Origin: a virus
Lineage: Duplodnaviria > Heunggongvirae > Uroviricota > Caudoviricetes
DNA: 22,145 nucleotides
IMG/VR virus record: IMGVR_UViG_3300037461_001229
Coordinates: 64,001-86,145 of that record
Direction: 5' to 3' (one strand)
Shown: positions 982 through 14,334 of the stretch, one piece after another
How the letters are laid out: each line of letters begins with the position of its first letter
Position numbering within the stretch: the stretch's first letter is position 1
Made by a program: the position numbers and the translations under genes
Notes under the pieces: model-generated
The model's input: only the letters and a program-made list of their open reading frames with translations
Database searches by the model: none
Told to the model about the DNA's origin: nothing

Positions 982-2004
982 ATGAAGGTGTTTCTTTTAA
1001 TAATAGAGTTCTTTCGCGGGATTCTTAAAAGGATGAAAAGGATGATAAAGGACAATATATTTAAAAGTAATAAGTTTTATCTTGACAAGGGGGATAAGGT
1101 AAATATCCTGGCTAAGGACACTCCCGAGAATACTGTGGTTGTTGCGTTACAGGACGAGGATGGTAATATAGAAGACATGTCTTCCATTCCAGAGGCAACT
1201 GTGGAGATAACCACTACCTATGTCGGGACGTTTGAGATACTGGTCTTTACCGGAGGAGAGATAGTAATAGACTGGGGGGATGGGAGTTTAGAATATTTTA
1301 ACACCACTGGGAATCCCGTATTTACTCCTACTCATGAATATACTGAAGCGGGTGAGAAAAATATTAAAATAAAGAACGCCAAAACGCTTTATTATCTGGT
1401 TATCAGTGCCACTTATGATGTGACTGCAGTCGTTGTGCCGGCGGTCTGTACTAGTGTACAGAGATTAGTTCTGGCAGGGACTGGCATAACGGAATTTACT
1501 ACACATCCCGAGTGGGTTGATTTATATGAGTTAGGCATATCAGGGACGGGGATAACATCTATAACCACATATCCAGAGTGGGTTGAGATGGATACTATTA
1601 ATGCCATCTCTACCCCGCTTCTTTCACTAGAGACTCACCCAGAGTGGGTTAAGTTAAGGCGGGTAAGGCTGGATGATTCTTCGGTGACCTCGCTTATTAC
1701 GTATGACACATGGGTTGAATTCAGAACTCTTGGTTTGAGTAATTGTAATATATCAAATATTGAGATTCATCCAGAATGGGTTGATTTCAGGGCGCTGGGA
1801 TGTGATGGTTGCGCTATAGCTATCGAGGCTAATATTGACAATATTTTAGTTAACCTGGATGCTACCGGGATGACAGCCACTCCTCCTTTGGATGTAAGAA
1901 ATATTTATCTTGATAGTGGAACAAATGCTCCGCCAACCCCAGTAGGAGATGCTGCCAAGGCTAATCTTGAGGCTAGGAATGTAAACGTATACACTAATAC
2001 TTAA
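982..2004 (+). CDS. PKD-domain plus leucine-rich-repeat virion appendage protein
   Basis: PKD signature IDWGDGS...THEYTEAG, then five 22-aa LRR units ([HY]PEWV-like motif every 66 nt) and a C-terminal cap (NIDNILVNLD...KANLEARNVNVYTN). Confidence 0.7.
   Translation: MKVFLLIIEFFRGILKRMKRMIKDNIFKSNKFYLDKGDKVNILAKDTPENTVVVALQDEDGNIEDMSSIPEATVEITTTYVGTFEILVFTGGEIVIDWGDGSLEYFNTTGNPVFTPTHEYTEAGEKNIKIKNAKTLYYLVISATYDVTAVVVPAVCTSVQRLVLAGTGITEFTTHPEWVDLYELGISGTGITSITTYPEWVEMDTINAISTPLLSLETHPEWVKLRRVRLDDSSVTSLITYDTWVEFRTLGLSNCNISNIEIHPEWVDFRALGCDGCAIAIEANIDNILVNLDATGMTATPPLDVRNIYLDSGTNAPPTPVGDAAKANLEARNVNVYTNT
1456..1818 (+). repeat. Five to six 66-nt (22-aa) leucine-rich repeats
   Basis: HPEWV/YPEWV/HPEWV/YDTWV/HPEWV start at 1504, 1570, 1636, 1702 and 1768, with an LxxLxIxxTxIxxI pattern. 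Confidence 0.85.
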
Positions 2005-4677: not shown

Positions 4678-7600
4678 ATGGCAGTAATTAACGATAGATT
4701 ATCAGAATTATATCAAGTTATCCCACAGGGTTCATTTAAGGATGAAGCTGAGTTTCGTTCTTATGTTACTGATGAGAATAAGCTTAAGGAATTCTATTCT
4801 ATTCTGCCAAGTGGATCATTTAGAGACGAGGATGAGTTTGTCGGGTATTTTGGGAATTCGTTAAAAAAAAAAGACTTTTCTCTCGAAGCTCTGGCAAGGG
4901 GCGAAAGCTTATCTCAGATGTTTGGGATAAAGCCAAAAGAATCTTCTGCTCCACTACCACCATTACAATCAACTAAAAAGCCTGTCTCTTACGAGGAGAC
5001 ATTACCGGAAGAGGTTGTCCCTACTTCAGTAATAAGAGCCAGGGATAAAAAATCTCAATATCTACAGCAAAAACAGCTAGAGCTTTCCGATAGAGTTCGA
5101 AAGGAATTAAAGGAAGAAGGTGATAAATTACAGTCTGATTACCAGAAACGTGCTCAACAGGAGGGAGCTGATAAGAAAACATTAGAAGATGAGCTTGATG
5201 TGAGACTCGGCGATCTCGTTTTTAGGAAGCAGAAAGAGTTCCAGAAAGAGATAGATGATCTTGTTTCTGATGAATATCAGTATCTTGAAAAGGGAGACGT
5301 TAAAGGTCTTGAGAAGCAGATAGACGAGATAATGGCCTCTGGTTCATTATATGATGTTAAGACAAGTAAGCTAAATCGCTTAAAGAATAGTTTCCTATCG
5401 CAACTAGCTGCCATGCCGGAAGAATACAGGAAACCTATTTCCGGTGAGATAAATGATCTATTTGTTAAAAAGACTCTATTTGACGAGGAGGGGAATGTCT
5501 CTATGTATGGATGGAAACAGGAGGCGTCCAAGAAGCTTGAGAATATCGCTACGGAGAAACAGAAACTAGCTTCGGCATTTGCGAGCAAGTATCCAGGCTG
5601 GAGTCCTAATGATGTATTCCCATTTACCCGTGAAGGTGCTCCTTCCCAACAGGAATATAATGATTATCTTAAAGAATTCACTCTTATTGATAAGGCGCAA
5701 ACATATCTTGAGCGGGTGCTTGAGATGCCTGATAGCGGAAAGGGAAATTTTGCCACTGAATTTAAAAAACAGGGCTTGGATTTTGTAAGAGATATCGCCA
5801 GTGCTGGTTTTGCTGGGGTTATTGATGATATTAAAAATTATAAGATAGCCAGGAAAATACAGGATAATGAGCCGGTGTCCCCAGGAGAAAGGGCTACCTT
5901 CGATGCGCTTGGGGTATTGGAGACTGCAGCTTCCGGTATTGAGGGAGGGAAGCTTGGTAAGGTAGTCGCGGAGGGAATACCGTTTATAGAGTCTATGCTT
6001 TTAACAGGTGGTGCCGGAATAGGTAAAAATGTTGCTAGTAATACATTAAAGCAAATATTAAAGAAAGAGGGTGCTAGGTTATTCTCCAAAGAGGGAGCTA
6101 AAATACTAGGCAGGGAGGTAGGTAAGGCTGGGATAGCTTCATTAGAAGCGGCCCCACTGTCTCCAATTTCATATAGCAGGATGTTTCAGGGATTAACCGG
6201 GCAGCGGGTGCTTAATGAAAAGGGTGAGTGGATGGTTGATAGAGCTACCGTGGAAGGGAAGCTGGAGGCTGCTACCAAGGGTCTGGCTACCGGTGCTACC
6301 GAGTATTTCACCGAGTCTCTTGGTGGGTTGGCCGGAGAGGTTGGGGGACTTATTAGAAAGGTTCCTGGATTAAGTAAGTTCAGATTGGCCAAGGGAGTAG
6401 AGGATTTATTTAAGATAACCAAATTCCAGGGAGCGCCTACAGAGGTGGCTGAAGAGCTTATTAATATTCCACTACAGGCTCCGATAGGGGATCAACCCTT
6501 GAGTGAGGTGACTTTACAGGATATATGGGATACAATATGGACTACTGCGGGATTCACTACTATATTAGGGGCTATTGGGGTACCCGGTGGTATTAGTAAC
6601 TCCATCCAGAGGGGTCGTAATTACAATACCGTTAATCAGTTTGGGCGCGATATCGTTTCTGAATTAAGGGATGCTATAGTATATAAGAACAAGGATGCTT
6701 TCTCAAGGGCTATAACGAGAGCCGAATTCTCATTAAGAGATAAGGCTCCAGAAGAGAAGCAGGCATCTATGAGTGCATTAATGACGTACGCTAAGTCCTT
6801 AGCTACCGAAACTATTACACGGGAGAATTCGGTTAATGAAGGACAGGAAACTGACGCATTAACAAAGCCTGAAAGGTTTACTATACCACAGCCAGGCGGT
6901 ACATCCTTGTATTTTAAAAATAAACAAGACTTTTTCACATGGCTCGATCAGAATGGAGAAGAAAAGCTACCAGCGCCCAATGAAGTAGGGTATCTTGATA
7001 GCAATGTCTACAAGGCTATGGATGAGTGGAAGATAATTAAAAAAGCACAACAAACCAAGGTAGTGGAGGGACAAAAAGATGCCGAAAGAATTGGAACGCA
7101 AACTAAAACAGGAAGCCGACAACCACAAGGGGTGGTCGAAGGAGAGAAAGGCGGCGTACGTGTACGGGACACTACGCAAGACCGGGTGGAAGCCAAGCCG
7201 GGAGAGGAAGTAACCGGACAAGATACCGGACAAGATGTTCAAGAACCGGGAAAAGTAGTCTCAGGAATAAAAGACCTTGAGCAGAAAGAGTCTTATGATT
7301 GTGGAGTATGTGCTCTTAGGACAGTGCTATCTAAGTATGGGATAGATACCACCGAGGATCAGATTATTAAAGAGACTAACCCGTCGGAAAAAACGGGCGT
7401 AGATTTAAAGGCTATCGTGGAGAATGCCCAAAACAAGGGTTTAAATGCAGAAATGAAGCAGGATATGACCCCTGATGATCTACGGGAGGCTGTCGATAAT
7501 GATATTCCTGTCATAATATTACAAAATGGGGTTGGAGAGACAAAGGCCGGTAAGAGCTATGAGGGTAATAAAGATGCCCATTACATAACAATCAAAGGTT

Positions 7601-10600
7601 ACGAGGGAGGGGAGTTTATTTTTGAAGACCCAAGTGCCAAAGGGAAGAACTTAAGAATCAGCGAAGAAGACTTACTGAAGAGATGGCATGGTTATCTTGA
7701 TGATGGCAAGACTATAGCTAATGGGATAGGTATAGTGATCAGTAAGCCCGCACAAAAAGCAACCCCACCAAGAGTCCTTAAAACAAAAGAGGACATTGAT
7801 ACCTATGTAAATGATAAGGTAACACAAGCCCCGGCAGAGAAGAAAAGATTCACCAGGATGAAAGCTGTAGTGGGCAGGGTGATGGATGTACTAAGTAAGA
7901 TTGCCCCGGACACAGAGGTGGTGATGCTGGAGAATGATGATGAGGTTAATAAGACTTTAGTCGGCCTTGGTGTTGATCCCGGGACTGCTAAATATAATGG
8001 CTGGTACCATCAGGGCAAGGTCTATCTCAATGCTGCCAGGTTTAAGGACACTACTCCTATCCACGAGGCCATCCACCCTATTATGAACGTGATGCGCCAG
8101 GTCGCGCCAGAGAAATATACTCAATGGGCAGATAAAGCCTCTAAAGAGCAGATACGGCTAGAAGATGGCACTACTATGACCTATAGCGAATATGTAGCTT
8201 CTGAGGGTGATACGCCGGCTATGACTGCAGATGAGTCCCTGGTGACCTTTCTTGAAGACTTCATTGGTGATAAGATCGATTATAAGAAAGTCAATAAGAC
8301 ATCGGTAGTAGAGGCTATTAAGCGTATGTTAACAGACCTATTAGAGTTCATGGGTATTAATCCTAAGACTTTTGCCGGCGCTGATATTAATCTTGATGAT
8401 ATCCAAGACCTTAAGCAGCTCTCTGAGTCGCTCCTGCAGGCATTTGAGGAAGGCAGGGCAGTGACTACGGCTACTCCGGCCAATCCTATGCTCGGGCCGG
8501 AGGTAGGTGGTGTACAGTTTCTTAATGGTACTGCAGCCGATTATCCTATCACAGAGGGTGTGCAGCCGTCTAGGGATTACGATGTTAAATTTGGTGATGT
8601 ACTTATCCCTAAAAACTACGATATAGATCAAGATGGAGATAACTTTATCTTCTATCATTACGGAGATGTAAAAGGAGGGGTAGTTGATCCTAAGTTCTTT
8701 GGGCGGAATGCCTATACCACAGATAAACGCACCCATAAGGTCAGTTACTACTACGTCAAAGATAACCAGAGGGAGCGGATGGTCAATGGGCCGGTCAATG
8801 TGGTTACCGTGCCTAAGCATAAGGTCTATCCGTTTAACGAAGACCCAATGTTTTTCTATGAGAAGGCTAAGGCTGCGTTTGAGAAAGAGAACCCGGGTAT
8901 AGCCTTTGATGCTCCAAGACAGATTGACGCCATGAATCCTATGATAGCCCAGGCCGGCTATGATATGGTGGTGGCAAAATGGGATGCATTCCCGCTAAGG
9001 GCTGAATCAACTAAGCCTCTTAAGGTAGATGAGGCGAAAACTGCTGAATTTGCCTCGGAGAAGGCTCTAGGGGGCCGGGAGCTCGTAAAAGAACAGATCG
9101 ATAATGATCTACAGGGTAAGGCCAGTCGTAATCCAGAACTCGCATCTATTTACTATAGTACAGGGGTAGATGGGGTATTGGCTGATCCGAAACTAAGGAA
9201 GCTCATAGATAAGAAACTTCTTAAAGCTTATGAAGGTAAGACGCCTGCTAGAATACAGCCGTCTATAGATAGAGTTGCTATAATTAAGAATACTTCAGCA
9301 GAAATAGAGAGACTAAAGGCACTCCCAATAGAAGCTGAGGATGGAGCCACTCTTAATCTTGATGGGACTAAGTACACTGGCGGGGGTTTAGCTACCCCAA
9401 TAACCAGCAGATCACCAAACCCAACACAGGCTGAGATCACGCCGGAAATGGTGGCTGACTTCATTGAGGCTAGCCAAAATAAGATAGGGTCAGACATAGT
9501 TAAGCCGGGGTTATATAAGTTCCCCAACCAAGCAGTGATGTCTATCGATCTTAATGCGGTCATCCCTCGTGAACACAGAGAGGTGGGTCTTGAGTTTGGT
9601 AGGTTGGCGGGACAGGAGTCGTTATTCGATCTTGATACCTTTGAGAATATTAAGACCGGGGCTACCGGCCAAAACCCAGTTCAGTTCACTGATGAAGAGT
9701 TCAGGGAGATAGCAGATTCACTGTCAAGGGGTGAGTTGCCTCGGGCAGTTGCTAATCTCAAGGCACTAGAATCTGGAGTATCGACCCATCTTGGTGATCC
9801 TACTACCCTAAGGGGCCCGATACAGGCATCAAAGGTAAGAGACGTAAAGGTCAGAGCCGGCTATAACCTGTCTTATGTAAAAGATAGCGATCTTATTGAT
9901 ATAACTACCTTAGTTAATGACATACACTCCAAGGGCCAGAAAGTGTGGTTCTGGGTAGCCGATCAGCTTGGCAGGGGTTATTATTACGATACTGTACTTA
10001 ATAAAGAGCACTATCTTGATGCAGGGCCGTCCTACGCTCTTGACCCTATAAACAGGGAGAGAGGTATTATATGGGCCTCGGGCATGAAGTTAGATCGCAT
10101 ACAGAGTAATATTAAGGATTCTGATTATATATTTATCATTAGCGGGTCTCCGATAATCAGCCATGCCTTTAACCAGGGCGTATTTGATCTATTACAGCAG
10201 AGGATCGAGCAGAAGGGCGATTTCAAGAAGTTTAAGGCTGCTACTCTAAAGACATCGGGTGTGGGCGATCTTACTAAGTTACTTAAGGCTCATGATTCTT
10301 TTGAGTCATTTAAGGGGTCTAGGGACAGGAAAGAGCTTATAAAGCTGATCTCCGCCCAGGAGACTAAGCAAACCCCCCTAAAATCACTCCTGCAGAAATA
10401 CAATGCCATTATTAATATGGACGAGCTAAGGGATGATTTCTATAGGGAGAATGATTTCCTGCAGAACGATATTATGCTTGTCCTTAAGCCCGAGAGTGCC
10501 AGCATTGGGTCTGATCATTCTACATACCTGAATGACGTATCGGGTGGGGTAGTAGGCGTACCTGATAAGGTTATTAATTCATATGACCTTATGCCTGATG

Positions 10601-13600
10601 AGTTAAGGAAAGTTCTTAGCGGCAGGCGTGTAGCACAATCCCAGGTTATTGCCCCTTATGGTTCAGGCATCAGGGATATAACATCAGTGAGGATACAGCC
10701 CTCTATAGAGCGTCCTGCAAGAAAGAGGGTAGAAGAAACCGAGACCCGTAAGCGGGAGATAGGTCGGAAGGTGGTAGAGGAGTCTGAGATGCCACAGGAT
10801 ATTAAGGATGCATTACTTGCCGAGGGTATCGAGTACATTCCAAGGGGACGCAGGTTCACCCAGGCTGAGTCTAAAGAGCTGGTGAATATCTTTGGGGCGA
10901 CCGAGGGAGGGTTGGATAAGCTAGCCAGCGCTGTCTATGACATAACTAACGACATTGCCGGGGACACTAGGGTGGTACTTAATGTCTATATAGCTGAACA
11001 GTACTCAAAACAATTAGATAGCGCCACTACTCCTGATGAGCGGGCTAAGATAAGAAAGAAACTTGCCAATGCATTTATTTTTGGACAGGAGTATGCCACT
11101 AAGGCCGGCCAGGTGGTTGAGGCGATGAAGAAATGGGGTGAGATACTTAGTCGTGATCCCGAGGCAATAATTGCTATTAAAAAACGCCAGCAGACCAAAA
11201 ATAATGAAGCCGCGCTAAAGGACTCGGAGAAAGATATTAAGACGGTAAAAGAGACATTGGATTCTCTTCTTAACACACCGGAGTTCAAGCAGATCATAGA
11301 GACAGAGGTTAATAAGGCTGTTGATAATATCGCAACGAAAAAGTTCGGAGCCACTGATAAGAAGAAGATAGAGGACTTCTTTGACAGCCTGATGATCAAG
11401 GATGATAAGATGTTCGATGCCACCCTTGGGATACCGGTAGCTGTCTATAATGGAGCCATGGTGGCTATTAAGAAAGCTATTTTTCTTGGTGTGGACATCA
11501 CTAATGCCATCAAGCAGGGGATTGAGTATATTGATAACTGGTACAAGGAGAACTACGCCAGCGGCAAGATACCGTCACCGGAATGGAATAAGACGGATTA
11601 TGAGATACAGATGGCCGAGAAACTTAAGCCGCTAACCAAGAAAGTAAAACAGGTCAAATTTAAGCTGCCTAAGAAGGCCGAGGATAATATCGTAGATAAG
11701 CTCTACGAGAAGATGGATAACGCTACCAAGCCACAGCTTCGCAGGATGGTAAGGCAGTATATTGATGTTCTTGAGGCCGAGGGGGCTGTCAGCCAGGAGC
11801 GTTTCAGGGACCTGTTTGCACGGGCGATAGGCTTAGAGGTACTAAGCGTGGAGGATGAGCAGAAGATAAGGCTCACGGGACAGGCGTTAAATAACGCCCG
11901 TAAGGTAGGTGATAGGCTGGTAGAGAAGTTTAATGAGTTACTCAAGGAGACCGATCCCGGCAAGACCAAGGAGCTGGAAGCGCAGATTAAGGCTCTTAAA
12001 AAAGAGGCTACCAAGGCTCGCCATGAGGCTCAAAAGGCATCTCAGAAGCTTGGTGAGCTACTTAGTGATCAGACCTCACTGGGGCAGGTCATTTCTTCAC
12101 TTATACAGGGGAATTTATTAACGCCTATATCTCTTGTTACTAACGTAATAGGTAATACTGCATTCCTCCCTGTCCGTGGTGTTAGAACTATGACTGCATC
12201 GGCATTAGATTTTCTAGTGGCCAGGTCAGCAGAGGTTTATACGCCATTACTGGATACGAAATGGATAAAAGCTCATCCAAGGATACGGAGACTTATAGCC
12301 GGCCTTCCCACCCCAGAGAGGGTGTATAATAGCTATGCTGCTATCAGGGGATTTGGAGCGGGTATTAAGATGGGAACTAAGGAGGGCCTGAAACAGCTCC
12401 TATCAGGTCAACTACCGGATGATTTATACGCAAGGGAGATATCCAGAGGCTTAGACCCCATTAAGGCATTTAAGCGCTTCAGGGATCAGCTTACAGGCAA
12501 AGGACAGGCTAAATTCGACAGGATGCTTGCTGACTTTCTTGAAGCCCTGCCAGGGGGATATACTGCAGAGACATTCTTTAGGTTACTTAACCTCGGTGAT
12601 AAACCATTCCGTAAGGCTGCTGAGAATGCTAGGTTATCAGAGATAGCCTCACTGAAAGGACTTAAGGGCAATGCCCGTGAGGCTTTCATGAATAATCCCG
12701 ATCCTGACTCACTGGAGGAGGCTCATAAAGCAGGGGAAGTGGCTGTATACCAGAACGATAATATTGTTTCTGATATATTCAAGTACCTACAGAGGAAATT
12801 AGGTAATTATAGCGCTGCTGATGCCCATAAGAGCAAGTCAATAATAATCAAGACCTTATATAATCTATTCAAGGGCACACAGGCTCCTTATGTCAAGACG
12901 CCGGTAAACCTTATAGTAGAAGCTATTGAATATACCATGGCTCCATATTCTTACCTCCGTGCTTTCGAGCAGATGGCGAGGGGTAATAAGAGACGTGCCT
13001 ATGACTACATGGCTAAGGCTATAGTGGGCACGATGCTGGTAAGGATGGCTATATTCCTTCTTGAGGAGGGACTGCTTAGTCCGCCTCCCGATGACGATGA
13101 GAAGATTCGCCAGGCACAATATACTGCCAAGCCCGGCTATTCGCTTAATATGGACGCATTGGCACGTAAGACATCCGGCGGAGACTCGTCATGGAAAGAC
13201 GGTGATATGGTGCTTAATATCCAGAGACTGGGAGTATTCTCGATGGTGCTTATGGCGGTATCTAAGGCATATAAAGACATCCCAAGGGATGAGTTTAAGT
13301 CTCTTACATGGATCGAGCGTAATGTCCGTATGGCTCCTGCTGTAGTTGGTAGTGCCCTCGACCAGTCATTTCTTGTGGGTACAGCGTCGGGTATTACGGC
13401 GTTCACCGAAGGAGGTCCTGCACTGGATCGGTGGGCTATCAACACTGCCAAGGCTCTATCAGCGGTGATCTATCCTAATACCTTAGCACAGATCAGCCAG
13501 GTATTCTTTGATGATAACTACATCAGGGAAGTCCGTGATATGTATAATAAAGAGGAGAGATTCGGTAAACAGATCAAGAATACCTTTAAGGATAGGATGT

Positions 13601-14334
13601 TCATGGGTAAAGACCTGCCGGCTAAAGTTAGTATATGGGGAGAGAGAGTTAATAGGGTTCCCGAGGGACGTAACTGGCCATACTCATTATTCGACGTCAC
13701 TAAATCAGTAGAATACCAGAAGAGTTCATTTGGCACAAGGATGTTCGAGTTCTATGAGAAGTATAGTTATATTGACGAGAAAGAGGCTAAACGGATACTG
13801 CCATCACTGCCTAGTGGTGCTAATACAGTAGGATGGGATGATAGGAATATGACGCCACAGGAGGTAGAAGAGCTACAGATGAGTGTGGGAAGGATGCGTA
13901 AGGCGTATGTCGAGAATCTTATGAACTCTGCTGAATGGGAGGCTATGTCTGACGAGGAGAAGATCGATAATCTGGATAAGATATACAGGGATATAGCCTC
14001 TAAGGTTAAGGCTGGTATGTTCATGCTTGACGTGGTTAAAAAGGACACCCAGTTATTTAACTATCTTAAACGCAATGATCTACTGCCTATCCCGAGTAGG
14101 TCTGTATCCTTTAAGTTCCGGGATAAGACCGTTAAGCTGGAGAAGGAAGAGGCTGCTAGCTTCTATGATACTGTTCAGAGGTATTTTGTAGAGATGATGA
14201 ATGATTCTGGCGCTGATTTCTCTGAAGATATCGATCCCGGGGCCCGTGACAGGCTTAAGGAGCGTATCGATAAGATATGGAGGCGGGCTAAAGACCGGGC
14301 TATTGGGGAGTGGAAAAGTGATTTAAGCGAATAA
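4678..14334 (+). CDS. Giant (3218 aa) polyvalent ejection protein with peptidase C39-like, zincin, ART-like and further cargo domains
   Basis: QKESYDCG...HY...DP (C39), GWYHQGKVYLN...IHEAIH (zincin), FYHYG...DPKFFG...YYY...AGYD (ART-like), and a helical C-terminus with NVIGN, DKPF and PYVKTPVN motifs typical of large podovirus ejection proteins. Confidence 0.8.
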   Translation: MAVINDRLSELYQVIPQGSFKDEAEFRSYVTDENKLKEFYSILPSGSFRDEDEFVGYFGNSLKKKDFSLEALARGESLSQMFGIKPKESSAPLPPLQSTKKPVSYEETLPEEVVPTSVIRARDKKSQYLQQKQLELSDRVRKELKEEGDKLQSDYQKRAQQEGADKKTLEDELDVRLGDLVFRKQKEFQKEIDDLVSDEYQYLEKGDVKGLEKQIDEIMASGSLYDVKTSKLNRLKNSFLSQLAAMPEEYRKPISGEINDLFVKKTLFDEEGNVSMYGWKQEASKKLENIATEKQKLASAFASKYPGWSPNDVFPFTREGAPSQQEYNDYLKEFTLIDKAQTYLERVLEMPDSGKGNFATEFKKQGLDFVRDIASAGFAGVIDDIKNYKIARKIQDNEPVSPGERATFDALGVLETAASGIEGGKLGKVVAEGIPFIESMLLTGGAGIGKNVASNTLKQILKKEGARLFSKEGAKILGREVGKAGIASLEAAPLSPISYSRMFQGLTGQRVLNEKGEWMVDRATVEGKLEAATKGLATGATEYFTESLGGLAGEVGGLIRKVPGLSKFRLAKGVEDLFKITKFQGAPTEVAEELINIPLQAPIGDQPLSEVTLQDIWDTIWTTAGFTTILGAIGVPGGISNSIQRGRNYNTVNQFGRDIVSELRDAIVYKNKDAFSRAITRAEFSLRDKAPEEKQASMSALMTYAKSLATETITRENSVNEGQETDALTKPERFTIPQPGGTSLYFKNKQDFFTWLDQNGEEKLPAPNEVGYLDSNVYKAMDEWKIIKKAQQTKVVEGQKDAERIGTQTKTGSRQPQGVVEGEKGGVRVRDTTQDRVEAKPGEEVTGQDTGQDVQEPGKVVSGIKDLEQKESYDCGVCALRTVLSKYGIDTTEDQIIKETNPSEKTGVDLKAIVENAQNKGLNAEMKQDMTPDDLREAVDNDIPVIILQNGVGETKAGKSYEGNKDAHYITIKGYEGGEFIFEDPSAKGKNLRISEEDLLKRWHGYLDDGKTIANGIGIVISKPAQKATPPRVLKTKEDIDTYVNDKVTQAPAEKKRFTRMKAVVGRVMDVLSKIAPDTEVVMLENDDEVNKTLVGLGVDPGTAKYNGWYHQGKVYLNAARFKDTTPIHEAIHPIMNVMRQVAPEKYTQWADKASKEQIRLEDGTTMTYSEYVASEGDTPAMTADESLVTFLEDFIGDKIDYKKVNKTSVVEAIKRMLTDLLEFMGINPKTFAGADINLDDIQDLKQLSESLLQAFEEGRAVTTATPANPMLGPEVGGVQFLNGTAADYPITEGVQPSRDYDVKFGDVLIPKNYDIDQDGDNFIFYHYGDVKGGVVDPKFFGRNAYTTDKRTHKVSYYYVKDNQRERMVNGPVNVVTVPKHKVYPFNEDPMFFYEKAKAAFEKENPGIAFDAPRQIDAMNPMIAQAGYDMVVAKWDAFPLRAESTKPLKVDEAKTAEFASEKALGGRELVKEQIDNDLQGKASRNPELASIYYSTGVDGVLADPKLRKLIDKKLLKAYEGKTPARIQPSIDRVAIIKNTSAEIERLKALPIEAEDGATLNLDGTKYTGGGLATPITSRSPNPTQAEITPEMVADFIEASQNKIGSDIVKPGLYKFPNQAVMSIDLNAVIPREHREVGLEFGRLAGQESLFDLDTFENIKTGATGQNPVQFTDEEFREIADSLSRGELPRAVANLKALESGVSTHLGDPTTLRGPIQASKVRDVKVRAGYNLSYVKDSDLIDITTLVNDIHSKGQKVWFWVADQLGRGYYYDTVLNKEHYLDAGPSYALDPINRERGIIWASGMKLDRIQSNIKDSDYIFIISGSPIISHAFNQGVFDLLQQRIEQKGDFKKFKAATLKTSGVGDLTKLLKAHDSFESFKGSRDRKELIKLISAQETKQTPLKSLLQKYNAIINMDELRDDFYRENDFLQNDIMLVLKPESASIGSDHSTYLNDVSGGVVGVPDKVINSYDLMPDELRKVLSGRRVAQSQVIAPYGSGIRDITSVRIQPSIERPARKRVEETETRKREIGRKVVEESEMPQDIKDALLAEGIEYIPRGRRFTQAESKELVNIFGATEGGLDKLASAVYDITNDIAGDTRVVLNVYIAEQYSKQLDSATTPDERAKIRKKLANAFIFGQEYATKAGQVVEAMKKWGEILSRDPEAIIAIKKRQQTKNNEAALKDSEKDIKTVKETLDSLLNTPEFKQIIETEVNKAVDNIATKKFGATDKKKIEDFFDSLMIKDDKMFDATLGIPVAVYNGAMVAIKKAIFLGVDITNAIKQGIEYIDNWYKENYASGKIPSPEWNKTDYEIQMAEKLKPLTKKVKQVKFKLPKKAEDNIVDKLYEKMDNATKPQLRRMVRQYIDVLEAEGAVSQERFRDLFARAIGLEVLSVEDEQKIRLTGQALNNARKVGDRLVEKFNELLKETDPGKTKELEAQIKALKKEATKARHEAQKASQKLGELLSDQTSLGQVISSLIQGNLLTPISLVTNVIGNTAFLPVRGVRTMTASALDFLVARSAEVYTPLLDTKWIKAHPRIRRLIAGLPTPERVYNSYAAIRGFGAGIKMGTKEGLKQLLSGQLPDDLYAREISRGLDPIKAFKRFRDQLTGKGQAKFDRMLADFLEALPGGYTAETFFRLLNLGDKPFRKAAENARLSEIASLKGLKGNAREAFMNNPDPDSLEEAHKAGEVAVYQNDNIVSDIFKYLQRKLGNYSAADAHKSKSIIIKTLYNLFKGTQAPYVKTPVNLIVEAIEYTMAPYSYLRAFEQMARGNKRRAYDYMAKAIVGTMLVRMAIFLLEEGLLSPPPDDDEKIRQAQYTAKPGYSLNMDALARKTSGGDSSWKDGDMVLNIQRLGVFSMVLMAVSKAYKDIPRDEFKSLTWIERNVRMAPAVVGSALDQSFLVGTASGITAFTEGGPALDRWAINTAKALSAVIYPNTLAQISQVFFDDNYIREVRDMYNKEERFGKQIKNTFKDRMFMGKDLPAKVSIWGERVNRVPEGRNWPYSLFDVTKSVEYQKSSFGTRMFEFYEKYSYIDEKEAKRILPSLPSGANTVGWDDRNMTPQEVEELQMSVGRMRKAYVENLMNSAEWEAMSDEEKIDNLDKIYRDIASKVKAGMFMLDVVKKDTQLFNYLKRNDLLPIPSRSVSFKFRDKTVKLEKEEAASFYDTVQRYFVEMMNDSGADFSEDIDPGARDRLKERIDKIWRRAKDRAIGEWKSDLSE
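7079..7213 (+). CDS. Nested out-of-frame 44-aa basic protein MPKELERKLKQEADNHKGWSKERKAAYVYGTLRKTGWKPSRERK
   Basis: Complete ATG..TAA in the +1 frame inside the giant ORF, preceded by GGAGG (7065) and an A-rich spacer. The AYVYGTLRKTGWKP motif matches a small phage hypothetical family as I recall it. Confidence 0.65.
   Translation: MPKELERKLKQEADNHKGWSKERKAAYVYGTLRKTGWKPSRERK
7270..7746 (+). other. Peptidase C39-like (papain-fold) domain in the giant protein
   Basis: Q(7282)...DCG with Cys at 7300, His at 7579 (AHYITIKGY) and Asp at 7627 (FEDP). The pattern LREAVDNDIPVIIL is also present. Confidence 0.85.
7850..8460 (+). other. Zincin-like metallopeptidase domain (MPTase-PolyVal-like)
   Basis: NGWYHQGKVYLNAARFKDTTPIHEAIHP has HExxH at 8062-8076, with a downstream candidate third ligand Glu (ADESLV, 8233). 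Boundaries are approximate. Confidence 0.75.
8572..9250 (+). other. ADP-ribosyltransferase-like domain (ART-PolyVal-like)
   Basis: FYHYG first-strand His (8656), DPKFFGRNAY, VSYYYV and a late AGYD motif. Catalytic residues were not verified. Confidence 0.5.

Follow-up and report, generated by a model that had tools for sequence, protein, structure and literature searches.

Why should one short peptide recur at the borders between otherwise unrelated parts of a single giant phage protein? This question is raised by a stretch of 22,145 nucleotides (nt) from a member of the Caudoviricetes, hereafter the window, which covers positions 64,001 to 86,145 of the 86,145-bp genome in IMG/VR record IMGVR_UViG_3300037461_001229, a contig assembled from a wetland metagenome. 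According to the list of open reading frames (ORFs) and their translations, the plus strand of the window encodes, at nt 4678–14334, a protein of 3218 amino acids (aa), named P0001. The peptide [IV]Q[PA]S occurs in this protein at aa 1295, 1526, 1715, and 2006 (nt 8560, 9253, 9820, and 10693); two of the four copies extend to RIQPSI(D/E)R. An earlier reading of this DNA, referred to here as the original prediction, regarded these copies as joints that delimit three cargo modules (A, B, and C) and proposed that they serve either as sites of cassette exchange or as processing sites for a peptidase carried by the protein itself. According to the analysis reported here, the joints are a real and non-trivial feature: junction peptides, specific to each lineage, that separate the swappable modules of a virion polyprotein of the crAss-like type.

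The repeat was examined within the protein and within the genome. Shuffled versions of P0001 are expected to contain 0.12 copies of [IV]Q[PA]S, and none of 5000 shuffles reached the observed number of four. This four-residue motif was defined after inspection, not beforehand, and an unbiased scan for any pair of 8-mers with 7/8 identity was positive in 9.7% of the shuffled protein copies. For this reason, the weight of the case lies in the position of the copies and in the relatives of P0001 rather than in the repeat itself. Outside the giant gene, the motif was found in no other ORF of at least 80 aa in the 86-kb genome, save one ORF of 95 aa. P0001 has a repeated consensus at its domain borders, as processed viral polyproteins do.

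Both the limits of homology and the predicted folds agree with the placement of the four copies at the edges of three modules. When relatives were mapped on P0001, homology breakpoints clustered at aa 1310–1319 and 1440–1459 (both belonging to module A), 1520–1539, 1680–1709, 1660–1729, and 2000–2009. The copy VQPS 1295 lies about 18 aa before the start of homology of module A, and an extra helical segment is present in many relatives upstream of the joint equivalent to IQAS. AlphaFold2 models place three of the four joints (VQPS 1295, IQAS 1715, and IQPS 2006), as well as a VQF peptide at aa 1279, in disordered linkers. The predicted local distance difference test score (pLDDT) is below 50 across aa 1269–1325, which span VQF 1279 and VQPS 1295. 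The linker comprising aa 1269–1312 is the counterpart of the 'LGDP..VQ..' joint that follows the tail of the zincin-like metallopeptidase module (zincin) in relatives. The VQF peptide is part of GGVQF (start at nt 8506), a possible fifth joint of the form GG↓VQF at aa 1277–1278.

Giant relatives of P0001 are numerous: 398 proteins were retrieved in a region search and 561 representatives in an exhaustive search. When viral contigs were scanned with just the last third of P0001, no relative emerged. Modules A, B, and C were present in at least 13 different orders or subsets among approximately 240 relatives. The combinations included C alone (63 proteins), CA (42), BC (29), BCA (24), and BA (24), while the order ABC of P0001 was found in just 3 proteins; of all modules in the family, C has the widest distribution. 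Modules B and C also occur as autonomous units. Namely, P0148 is a complete free-standing module C gene (283 aa) within a contig of 10.6 kb, and P0241 is the complete product (170 aa) of a free-standing module B gene; the termini of both lie within a few residues of the joints. No split genes beginning cleanly at a joint were found beyond these two. Thus, relatives gain, lose, and reorder modules at the joints, in agreement with the mosaic of swappable modules that the original prediction described.

The closest relative, P0003 (locus L002), shares 56% identity with P0001 in module A and 40% in B, C, and the part that follows. At the joint between A and B, P0001 has a single IQPSIDR, whereas P0003 has VQPSIDK, a stretch of 146 residues, and then IQFSIDR. 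The 146-residue insert corresponds to a single ART-PolyVal domain in full length (Pfam E = 4.8e-20; positions 1–140 of the 140 in the profile). P0003 is therefore a case in which a module was gained or lost precisely at a joint, as had been suggested as something to look for in homologs. The joint between B and C of P0003 reads IQPSIER where P0001 has IQAS, and the joint after module C has the weaker form IQFQ.

The joints co-vary across the family, in which hundreds of phage proteins have a version of their own at equivalent positions. Of the 147 relatives that possess module C, 136 have the HExxH motif of the zincin at a distance of 172–211 residues upstream of a fixed anchor in this module. 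This spacing defines the usual order zincin, joint, C, joint, A, with the first joint directly after the zincin; in P0001 and P0003, an insertion of A (and B) separates the zincin from C. Among orthologous C modules (40–53% identity), the motif on one flank is repeated on the other, but it differs between lineages. The flank pairs are IERFQ on both sides, IKSQ/IKFQ, PRKQV/NRKQL, IQAQK/IQYQK, and, in P0001, IQAS/IQPS; the lineage motifs include IERFQ, SKIKFQK, QxSxGxR, RKQ, and IQPS. The two flanks of a module resembled each other more than in permuted pairings, both among 64 sequences (z = 9.7) and among 17 lineages with less than 60% core identity (z = 3.8; 0 of 5000 permutations reached the value). 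A comparison of flanks following module A with those following module C gave just z = 2.4 with a fixed window of 50 aa, a low value due to the varying distance of the joint from module A.

Recurring repeats in the family were first flagged by an unbiased 8-mer scan. In P0071, four copies of QxSxGxR (aa 1339, 1525, 1740, and 2301), all encoded by different codons, were identified, with none elsewhere in the 29-kb locus. Two or more copies per protein were found for QxSxGx[RK] in 21 proteins, with a median spacing of 256 aa, and for KIK[FAS]Q in 16 proteins; none were found after shuffling. Judged from these sequences, the motif belongs to the host protein and not to the module, because one and the same module has different flanks across lineages and different modules within one protein share a flank.

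The original prediction further stated that the joints are conserved at the DNA level. The 17-mers at nt 9253 and 10693 are indeed one base apart. Codon usage in the giant gene is biased, with ATA making up 45% of Ile codons, CAG 73% of Gln codons, and TCT being the commonest Ser codon. Given the shared residues and this codon usage, neither the 19 of 24 identical bases (P = 0.19) nor the four of seven shared codons (P = 0.16) in this pair of joints exceed expectation. Common residues written in the codons that this gene prefers account for the match between the two 17-mers, so that neither conservation at the DNA level nor the microhomology argument built on it was borne out. Over the joints of four family genes, 30 synonymous codons are shared versus 27 expected (z = 0.8). 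The four 4-residue cores of P0001, taken on their own, show a mild excess of shared codons (P of about 0.01, post hoc). P0003 encodes the same peptide with other codons. The lack of a synonymous-codon excess and the different codons of P0003 show that conservation acts on the peptide and not on the DNA.

A form joined between 9253 and 10693 was absent from the Logan contigs of two wetland runs, an absence of little weight, as such contigs cannot reveal rare variants. One of the runs may be the origin of the present DNA; the Logan contigs of the other included identical fragments, one of them across 10633–10869. Constraint on the peptide may create short in-frame homologies at module edges, easing cassette exchange as a by-product. 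The order zincin, C, A is old, and the flanks of an ancient insertion should therefore have drifted apart, yet they stay alike in each lineage. Since they do so with no excess of shared codons, a common lineage-specific reader of the peptide is the simplest reading.

The explanation that we place first, and regard as quite possible though short of probable, is suggested by sequence comparison: the joints would be short linear motifs in disordered linkers, read by one lineage-specific partner, most likely the zincin, which would cut the polyprotein into its modules. The joints would then lie between independently folding modules of a polyvalent protein packaged in the virion, and one partner would read all joints of one protein. 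We infer that this reader may be a protease and, more specifically, the protein's own HExxH zincin, which would release separate modules either within the capsid or once the protein has been ejected into the host cell. The zincin is favored because it is the only candidate protease present across the family and immediately precedes the first joint. A hydrophobic residue at P1' is the usual preference of zincins, which would put the cut most likely just ahead of Ile/Val (R↓IQPS). The predicted fragments would comprise aa 1 to approximately 1278 or 1294 (the N-terminal part, a C39-type cysteine peptidase domain, and the zincin), A at approximately 1295–1525, B at 1526–1714, C at 1715–2005, and the C-terminal part from aa 2006.

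Autoproteolytic processing of polyvalent proteins by zincin-like metallopeptidases (MPTases) has been proposed, with no cleavage sites given in the passages searched (Iyer et al., 2017; PMC5512222). Cleavage of fused crAss-like virion polyproteins has also been proposed, again with no sites given, in the preprint on the phi14:2 RNA polymerase (RNAP; 10.1101/2020.03.07.982082). The data are compatible with the suggestion that the joints are processing sites for the protein's own C39 or zincin peptidase, and the way in which the joints co-vary by lineage lends it further weight as far as the zincin is concerned, while C39 is a poor candidate. A broader proposal, which we put forward with more reserve as conceivable but doubtful, is that the polyvalent proteins in this large family of crAss-like and Flavobacteriia-type phages are genuine polyproteins governed by a 'cleavage code', in which zincin and junction peptides co-evolve as a lineage-specific enzyme–substrate pair.

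Several observations weigh against processing by the zincin. Pro follows Gln in three of the four joints of P0001, which disfavors a cut directly after Gln, so the position of the cut has to be placed elsewhere by inference. The zincin assignment itself finds Pfam silent and fold matches weak (Z of 6 or less). The closest relative over modules A and B, P0024 (61% identity, same order), has no motif at the A/B joint. The motif classes in the family were chosen by eye before counting, and the sequences share ancestry. The literature searched yielded no cleavage data for P0001 or its relatives, no description of a junction or cleavage motif, and no proteomic data for Elemovirus. Finally, the virion RNA polymerase (vRNAP) of N4, which has an MPTase domain, is packaged uncut according to Iyer et al. 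(2017; PMC5512222).

The joints could alternatively be recombination junctions and nothing else, either in-frame microhomologies or a duplicated target, in a protein that works uncut like beads on a string. This is unlikely in our view. It would account for the shuffling of modules, for the two joint copies that flank the P0003 insert like a duplicated target, for the 16 of 17 bases shared by the two best joints, and for the slight codon excess in the four cores, but the DNA identity is explained by peptide and codon bias, and the four family genes display no synonymous excess. Moreover, with an old zincin–joint–C–joint–A order of fixed spacing, duplicated targets should have diverged, and the flanks match within lineages nonetheless. 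A low probability is also assigned to a reader other than a protease, such as a partner in packaging or ejection (the portal, cargo proteins, or a chaperone), a host factor, or a Gln–Lys cross-linking enzyme, or to joints acting as linker caps for unfolding and refolding during tail passage. Uniformity within a protein and selection at the peptide level demand a common reader, not specifically a protease, and Gln and basic residues are abundant in the motifs. In addition, partial unfolding has been suggested for crAss-type cargo proteins on their way through the tail (PMC10172136), and some MPTase-bearing proteins are delivered uncut (PMC5512222). No candidate for such a partner has been identified, however; the motif is present in no other long ORF of the genome (one 95-aa ORF aside) or of the P0071 locus, the free-standing modules have no motif beyond their ends, and a protease domain adjoins the first joint in nearly all relatives. 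These readings and processing are not mutually exclusive and could coexist, since a constrained peptide gives in-frame homologies.

Cleavage by a different enzyme, the C39 peptidase or a capsid maturation protease, appears improbable. The C39 domain is apparently intact, with Cys, His, and Asp present, and one candidate joint follows Gly-Gly (aa 1277–1278). In phiKZ-like phages, a prohead protease cleaves the head proteins at numerous positions that share a short consensus. However, among the 120 relatives listed only P0001 has a C39 domain, whereas the joints are family-wide, and Gly-Gly, the site after which C39 peptidases cut, does not precede any of the four named joints; Gly-Gly or Gly-Ala/Ser before the cut in company with a co-occurring peptidase, as is characteristic of C39 substrates, is not what the joints display. 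No prohead protease was recognized in the ten head-region ORFs scanned, including the terminase and portal genes, and the motif is missing from other long ORFs. Chance repetition of a short peptide without function, to which the frequency of positive shuffles in the 8-mer scan would lend some room, is hardly credible: the copies far exceed the shuffled expectation and are without exception located at module edges, corresponding joints in the closest relative, P0003, repeat the peptide in other codons, and the pattern extends across the family.

Processing by the zincin would have parallels in known systems. Viral polyprotein cleavage codes include those of picornavirus 3C (Gln↓Gly), potyvirus NIa, and phiKZ gp175 (S/A/G-x-Glu). 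The joints of P0001 are similar to these in having a short consensus at domain borders, a protease encoded in the same system, uniformity within a lineage, differences between lineages, and a prominent Gln. They differ in that the candidate enzyme is a zincin and not a chymotrypsin-like or assemblin-like protease, that Pro follows Gln, and that cleavage is a candidate property here.

P0001 shares with the polyvalent proteins (Iyer, Burroughs, Anand, de Souza, and Aravind, 2017; PMC5512222) the character of a giant multi-domain phage protein encoded among virion genes, with a zincin-like peptidase as a hub and swappable effector-type domains, and its relatives carry ART-PolyVal, DUF3293, and LPD domains. 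As is typical of this class, it joins unrelated domains in one chain (C39, the HExxH zincin, PUA-like C, A, and B). In contrast to the P0001 family with its explicit lineage-specific junction peptides, the passages of that paper that were searched contain the word 'linker' 0 times and name no linker or cleavage motif; the zincin of P0001 also differs in being unrecognized by Pfam. With the fused crAss-like virion polyproteins (orthologs of phi14:2 gp65–gp67; 10.1101/2020.03.07.982082), P0001 has in common the gene position after crAss-type tail and cargo genes, the zincin inside the protein, and the suggestion of cleavage. The differences are the genome without a DFDxD/DYDxD motif, the modules that are effector-like and not parts of an RNAP, and cleavage sites, which were not proposed there.

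Cutting of polyvalent proteins into effectors has been proposed since 2017 with the sites lacking, and the P0001 family provides explicit candidate sites with an evolutionary signature. If the joints are indeed cut, module borders and released products would be predictable from sequence in hundreds of uncultured phages. Any module placed between two junctions would automatically be freed as a separate effector, a natural form of plug-and-play cargo delivery, and this would explain how the protein can acquire new anti-host modules while its other parts stay undisturbed. Uncut joints would still represent a conserved linear motif in virion cargo proteins.

Features of the giant gene and its product (nt positions in the window; aa positions in P0001)
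Feature	Position (nt)	Strand	Description
Giant gene P0001	4678..14334	+	Polyvalent virion-cargo-type protein; follows tail and cargo-like genes; approximately 400 giant relatives
Possible extra joint IKKAQQTK, aa 787–794	7036..7059	+	Tentative; 7/8 residues as in aa 2167–2174; N-terminal P0003 homology stops at aa 791
C39-type cysteine peptidase domain, aa 868–1007	7279..7698	+	C875, H968, D984; Pfam PF03412 E = 3.6e-14, PF13529 E = 8.7e-11
Zincin-like metallopeptidase module, aa 1025–1268	7750..8481	+	HEAIH at aa 1129–1133 (nt 8062–8076), E1186
Linker, aa 1269–1312	8482..8613	+	Disordered; holds VQF (nt 8512–8520) and VQPS (nt 8560–8571)
Module A, aa 1313–1525	8614..9252	+	Conserved core 1313–1449 and variable extension; possibly ART-like
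Joint IQPSIDR, aa 1526–1532	9253..9273	+	Between modules A and B; the conserved module B sequence opens with I-D-R as its first block
Module B, aa 1533–1697	9274..9768	+	40-sequence alignment, mean column identity 54%
Linker, aa 1698–1719	9769..9834	+	Disordered, pLDDT 40–51; holds IQAS (nt 9820–9831)
Module C, aa 1720–2005	9835..10692	+	PUA-like (YTH/ASCH/EVE-type) domain with helical insert
Joint IQPSIER, aa 2006–2012	10693..10713	+	Between module C and C-terminal part; 111 homology breakpoints at aa 2000–2009
Possible extra joint IKKRQQTK, aa 2167–2174	11176..11199	+	Tentative; homology pieces end at aa 2163 and begin at aa 2172

Two peptidase domains precede the modules (see table). C39 was the sole Pfam family found in the giant protein above the cut-off, and a PHROGs scan of protein pieces gave just a weak endolysin-type match, on the C39 part. 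LPD14, the only catalogued polyvalent-protein family seen in P0001, remained under the cut-off (E = 0.01). In the zincin, the H, E, and H of HExxH are invariant across 77 aligned sequences and E1186 is nearly so. AlphaFold2 predicts a folded domain at aa 1025–1265, whose fold weakly matches those of anthrax lethal factor (Z = 6.0) and of Pro-Pro endopeptidases (Z = 5.9 and 5.2). This module had no match in Pfam, and a Foldseek search against the Protein Data Bank (PDB) gave nothing significant (E > 0.3).

The functional guesses initially made for the three modules fared differently. For module A, described as ART-like, a likeness of 0.92 to ART-PolyVal clusters was obtained with a language model, and a D-x-D-G...Y-H start is shared; this gives a lead, to which profile comparisons did not add. 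Namely, none of 37 members of the module A family had a Pfam match, no PDB sequence match was found, and an hhalign comparison with the ART-PolyVal insert of P0003 gave a probability below 1%. The label 'SAM-lyase-like' for module B found no support, as the family had no match in Pfam, PDB sequences, or Atlas. The C-terminal helix of this module (aa 1668–1697, nt 9679–9768; FT-EEF-EIA..L..G-LP) resembles the helical tail located between the zincin and module C in relatives, which is why BLAST places both on one query segment. Module B seems, from this resemblance, to have replaced in P0001 the helical tail that follows the zincin in relatives.

Module C, initially listed as unknown, now looks PUA/YTH/ASCH-like. 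The AlphaFold2 model of aa 1720–2004 has a mean pLDDT of 86, with a core above 90, and IQAS 1715 and IQPS 2006 are located immediately outside it. All top 20 VIA matches of this model were PUA-like (YTH, ASCH, EVE, and McrB-N; Z = 7.1 to 4.9). Foldseek against the PDB gave no significant match, and the Atlas fold search returned just weak ASCH-like rows. The domain contains a helical insert of approximately 100 aa, and its invariant residues include a conserved W-F-W..DQ, SGSP, and HSTY. A protease function was considered for this module on account of the invariant Ser, His, and Asp, and was dropped on the basis of the PUA-like fold matches. As modeled, module C is probably a reader of nucleic acids or modified bases and not a protease.

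The gene for the free-standing module C protein P0148 (L005 6001–6852) is located among many small genes and adjoins an endonuclease VII gene. Its surroundings look like the early or accessory region of another phage, which suggests that module C is used in two ways, as cargo of the virion and as the product of an ordinary gene. Homologs of aa 1–790 of P0001 (nt 4678–7030) were found only in P0003 (42% identity) and P0115 (24%), whereas modules A, B, and C share 40–60% identity with hundreds of proteins. Accordingly, the cargo modules are more widespread than the backbone that carries them.

Domains present in the relatives include PF18760, PF11697, PF18857, and PF18838. The crAss-type virion RNA polymerase motif DFDxD/DYDxD was absent from the long open frames of the 86,145-bp genome, despite its crAss-like order of tail and cargo genes and its crAss-like relatives. 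The gene for P0071 is located three genes downstream of a gene of the crAss muzzle type (crAss_MUZ_C), and gp18 of Elemovirus, annotated as a structural protein, has module A. Within P0001, the peptides IKKAQQTK (aa 787) and IKKRQQTK (aa 2167) may, to judge by their sequences and surroundings, represent further joints. This pair resembles the joints of other lineages that combine basic residues with Gln.

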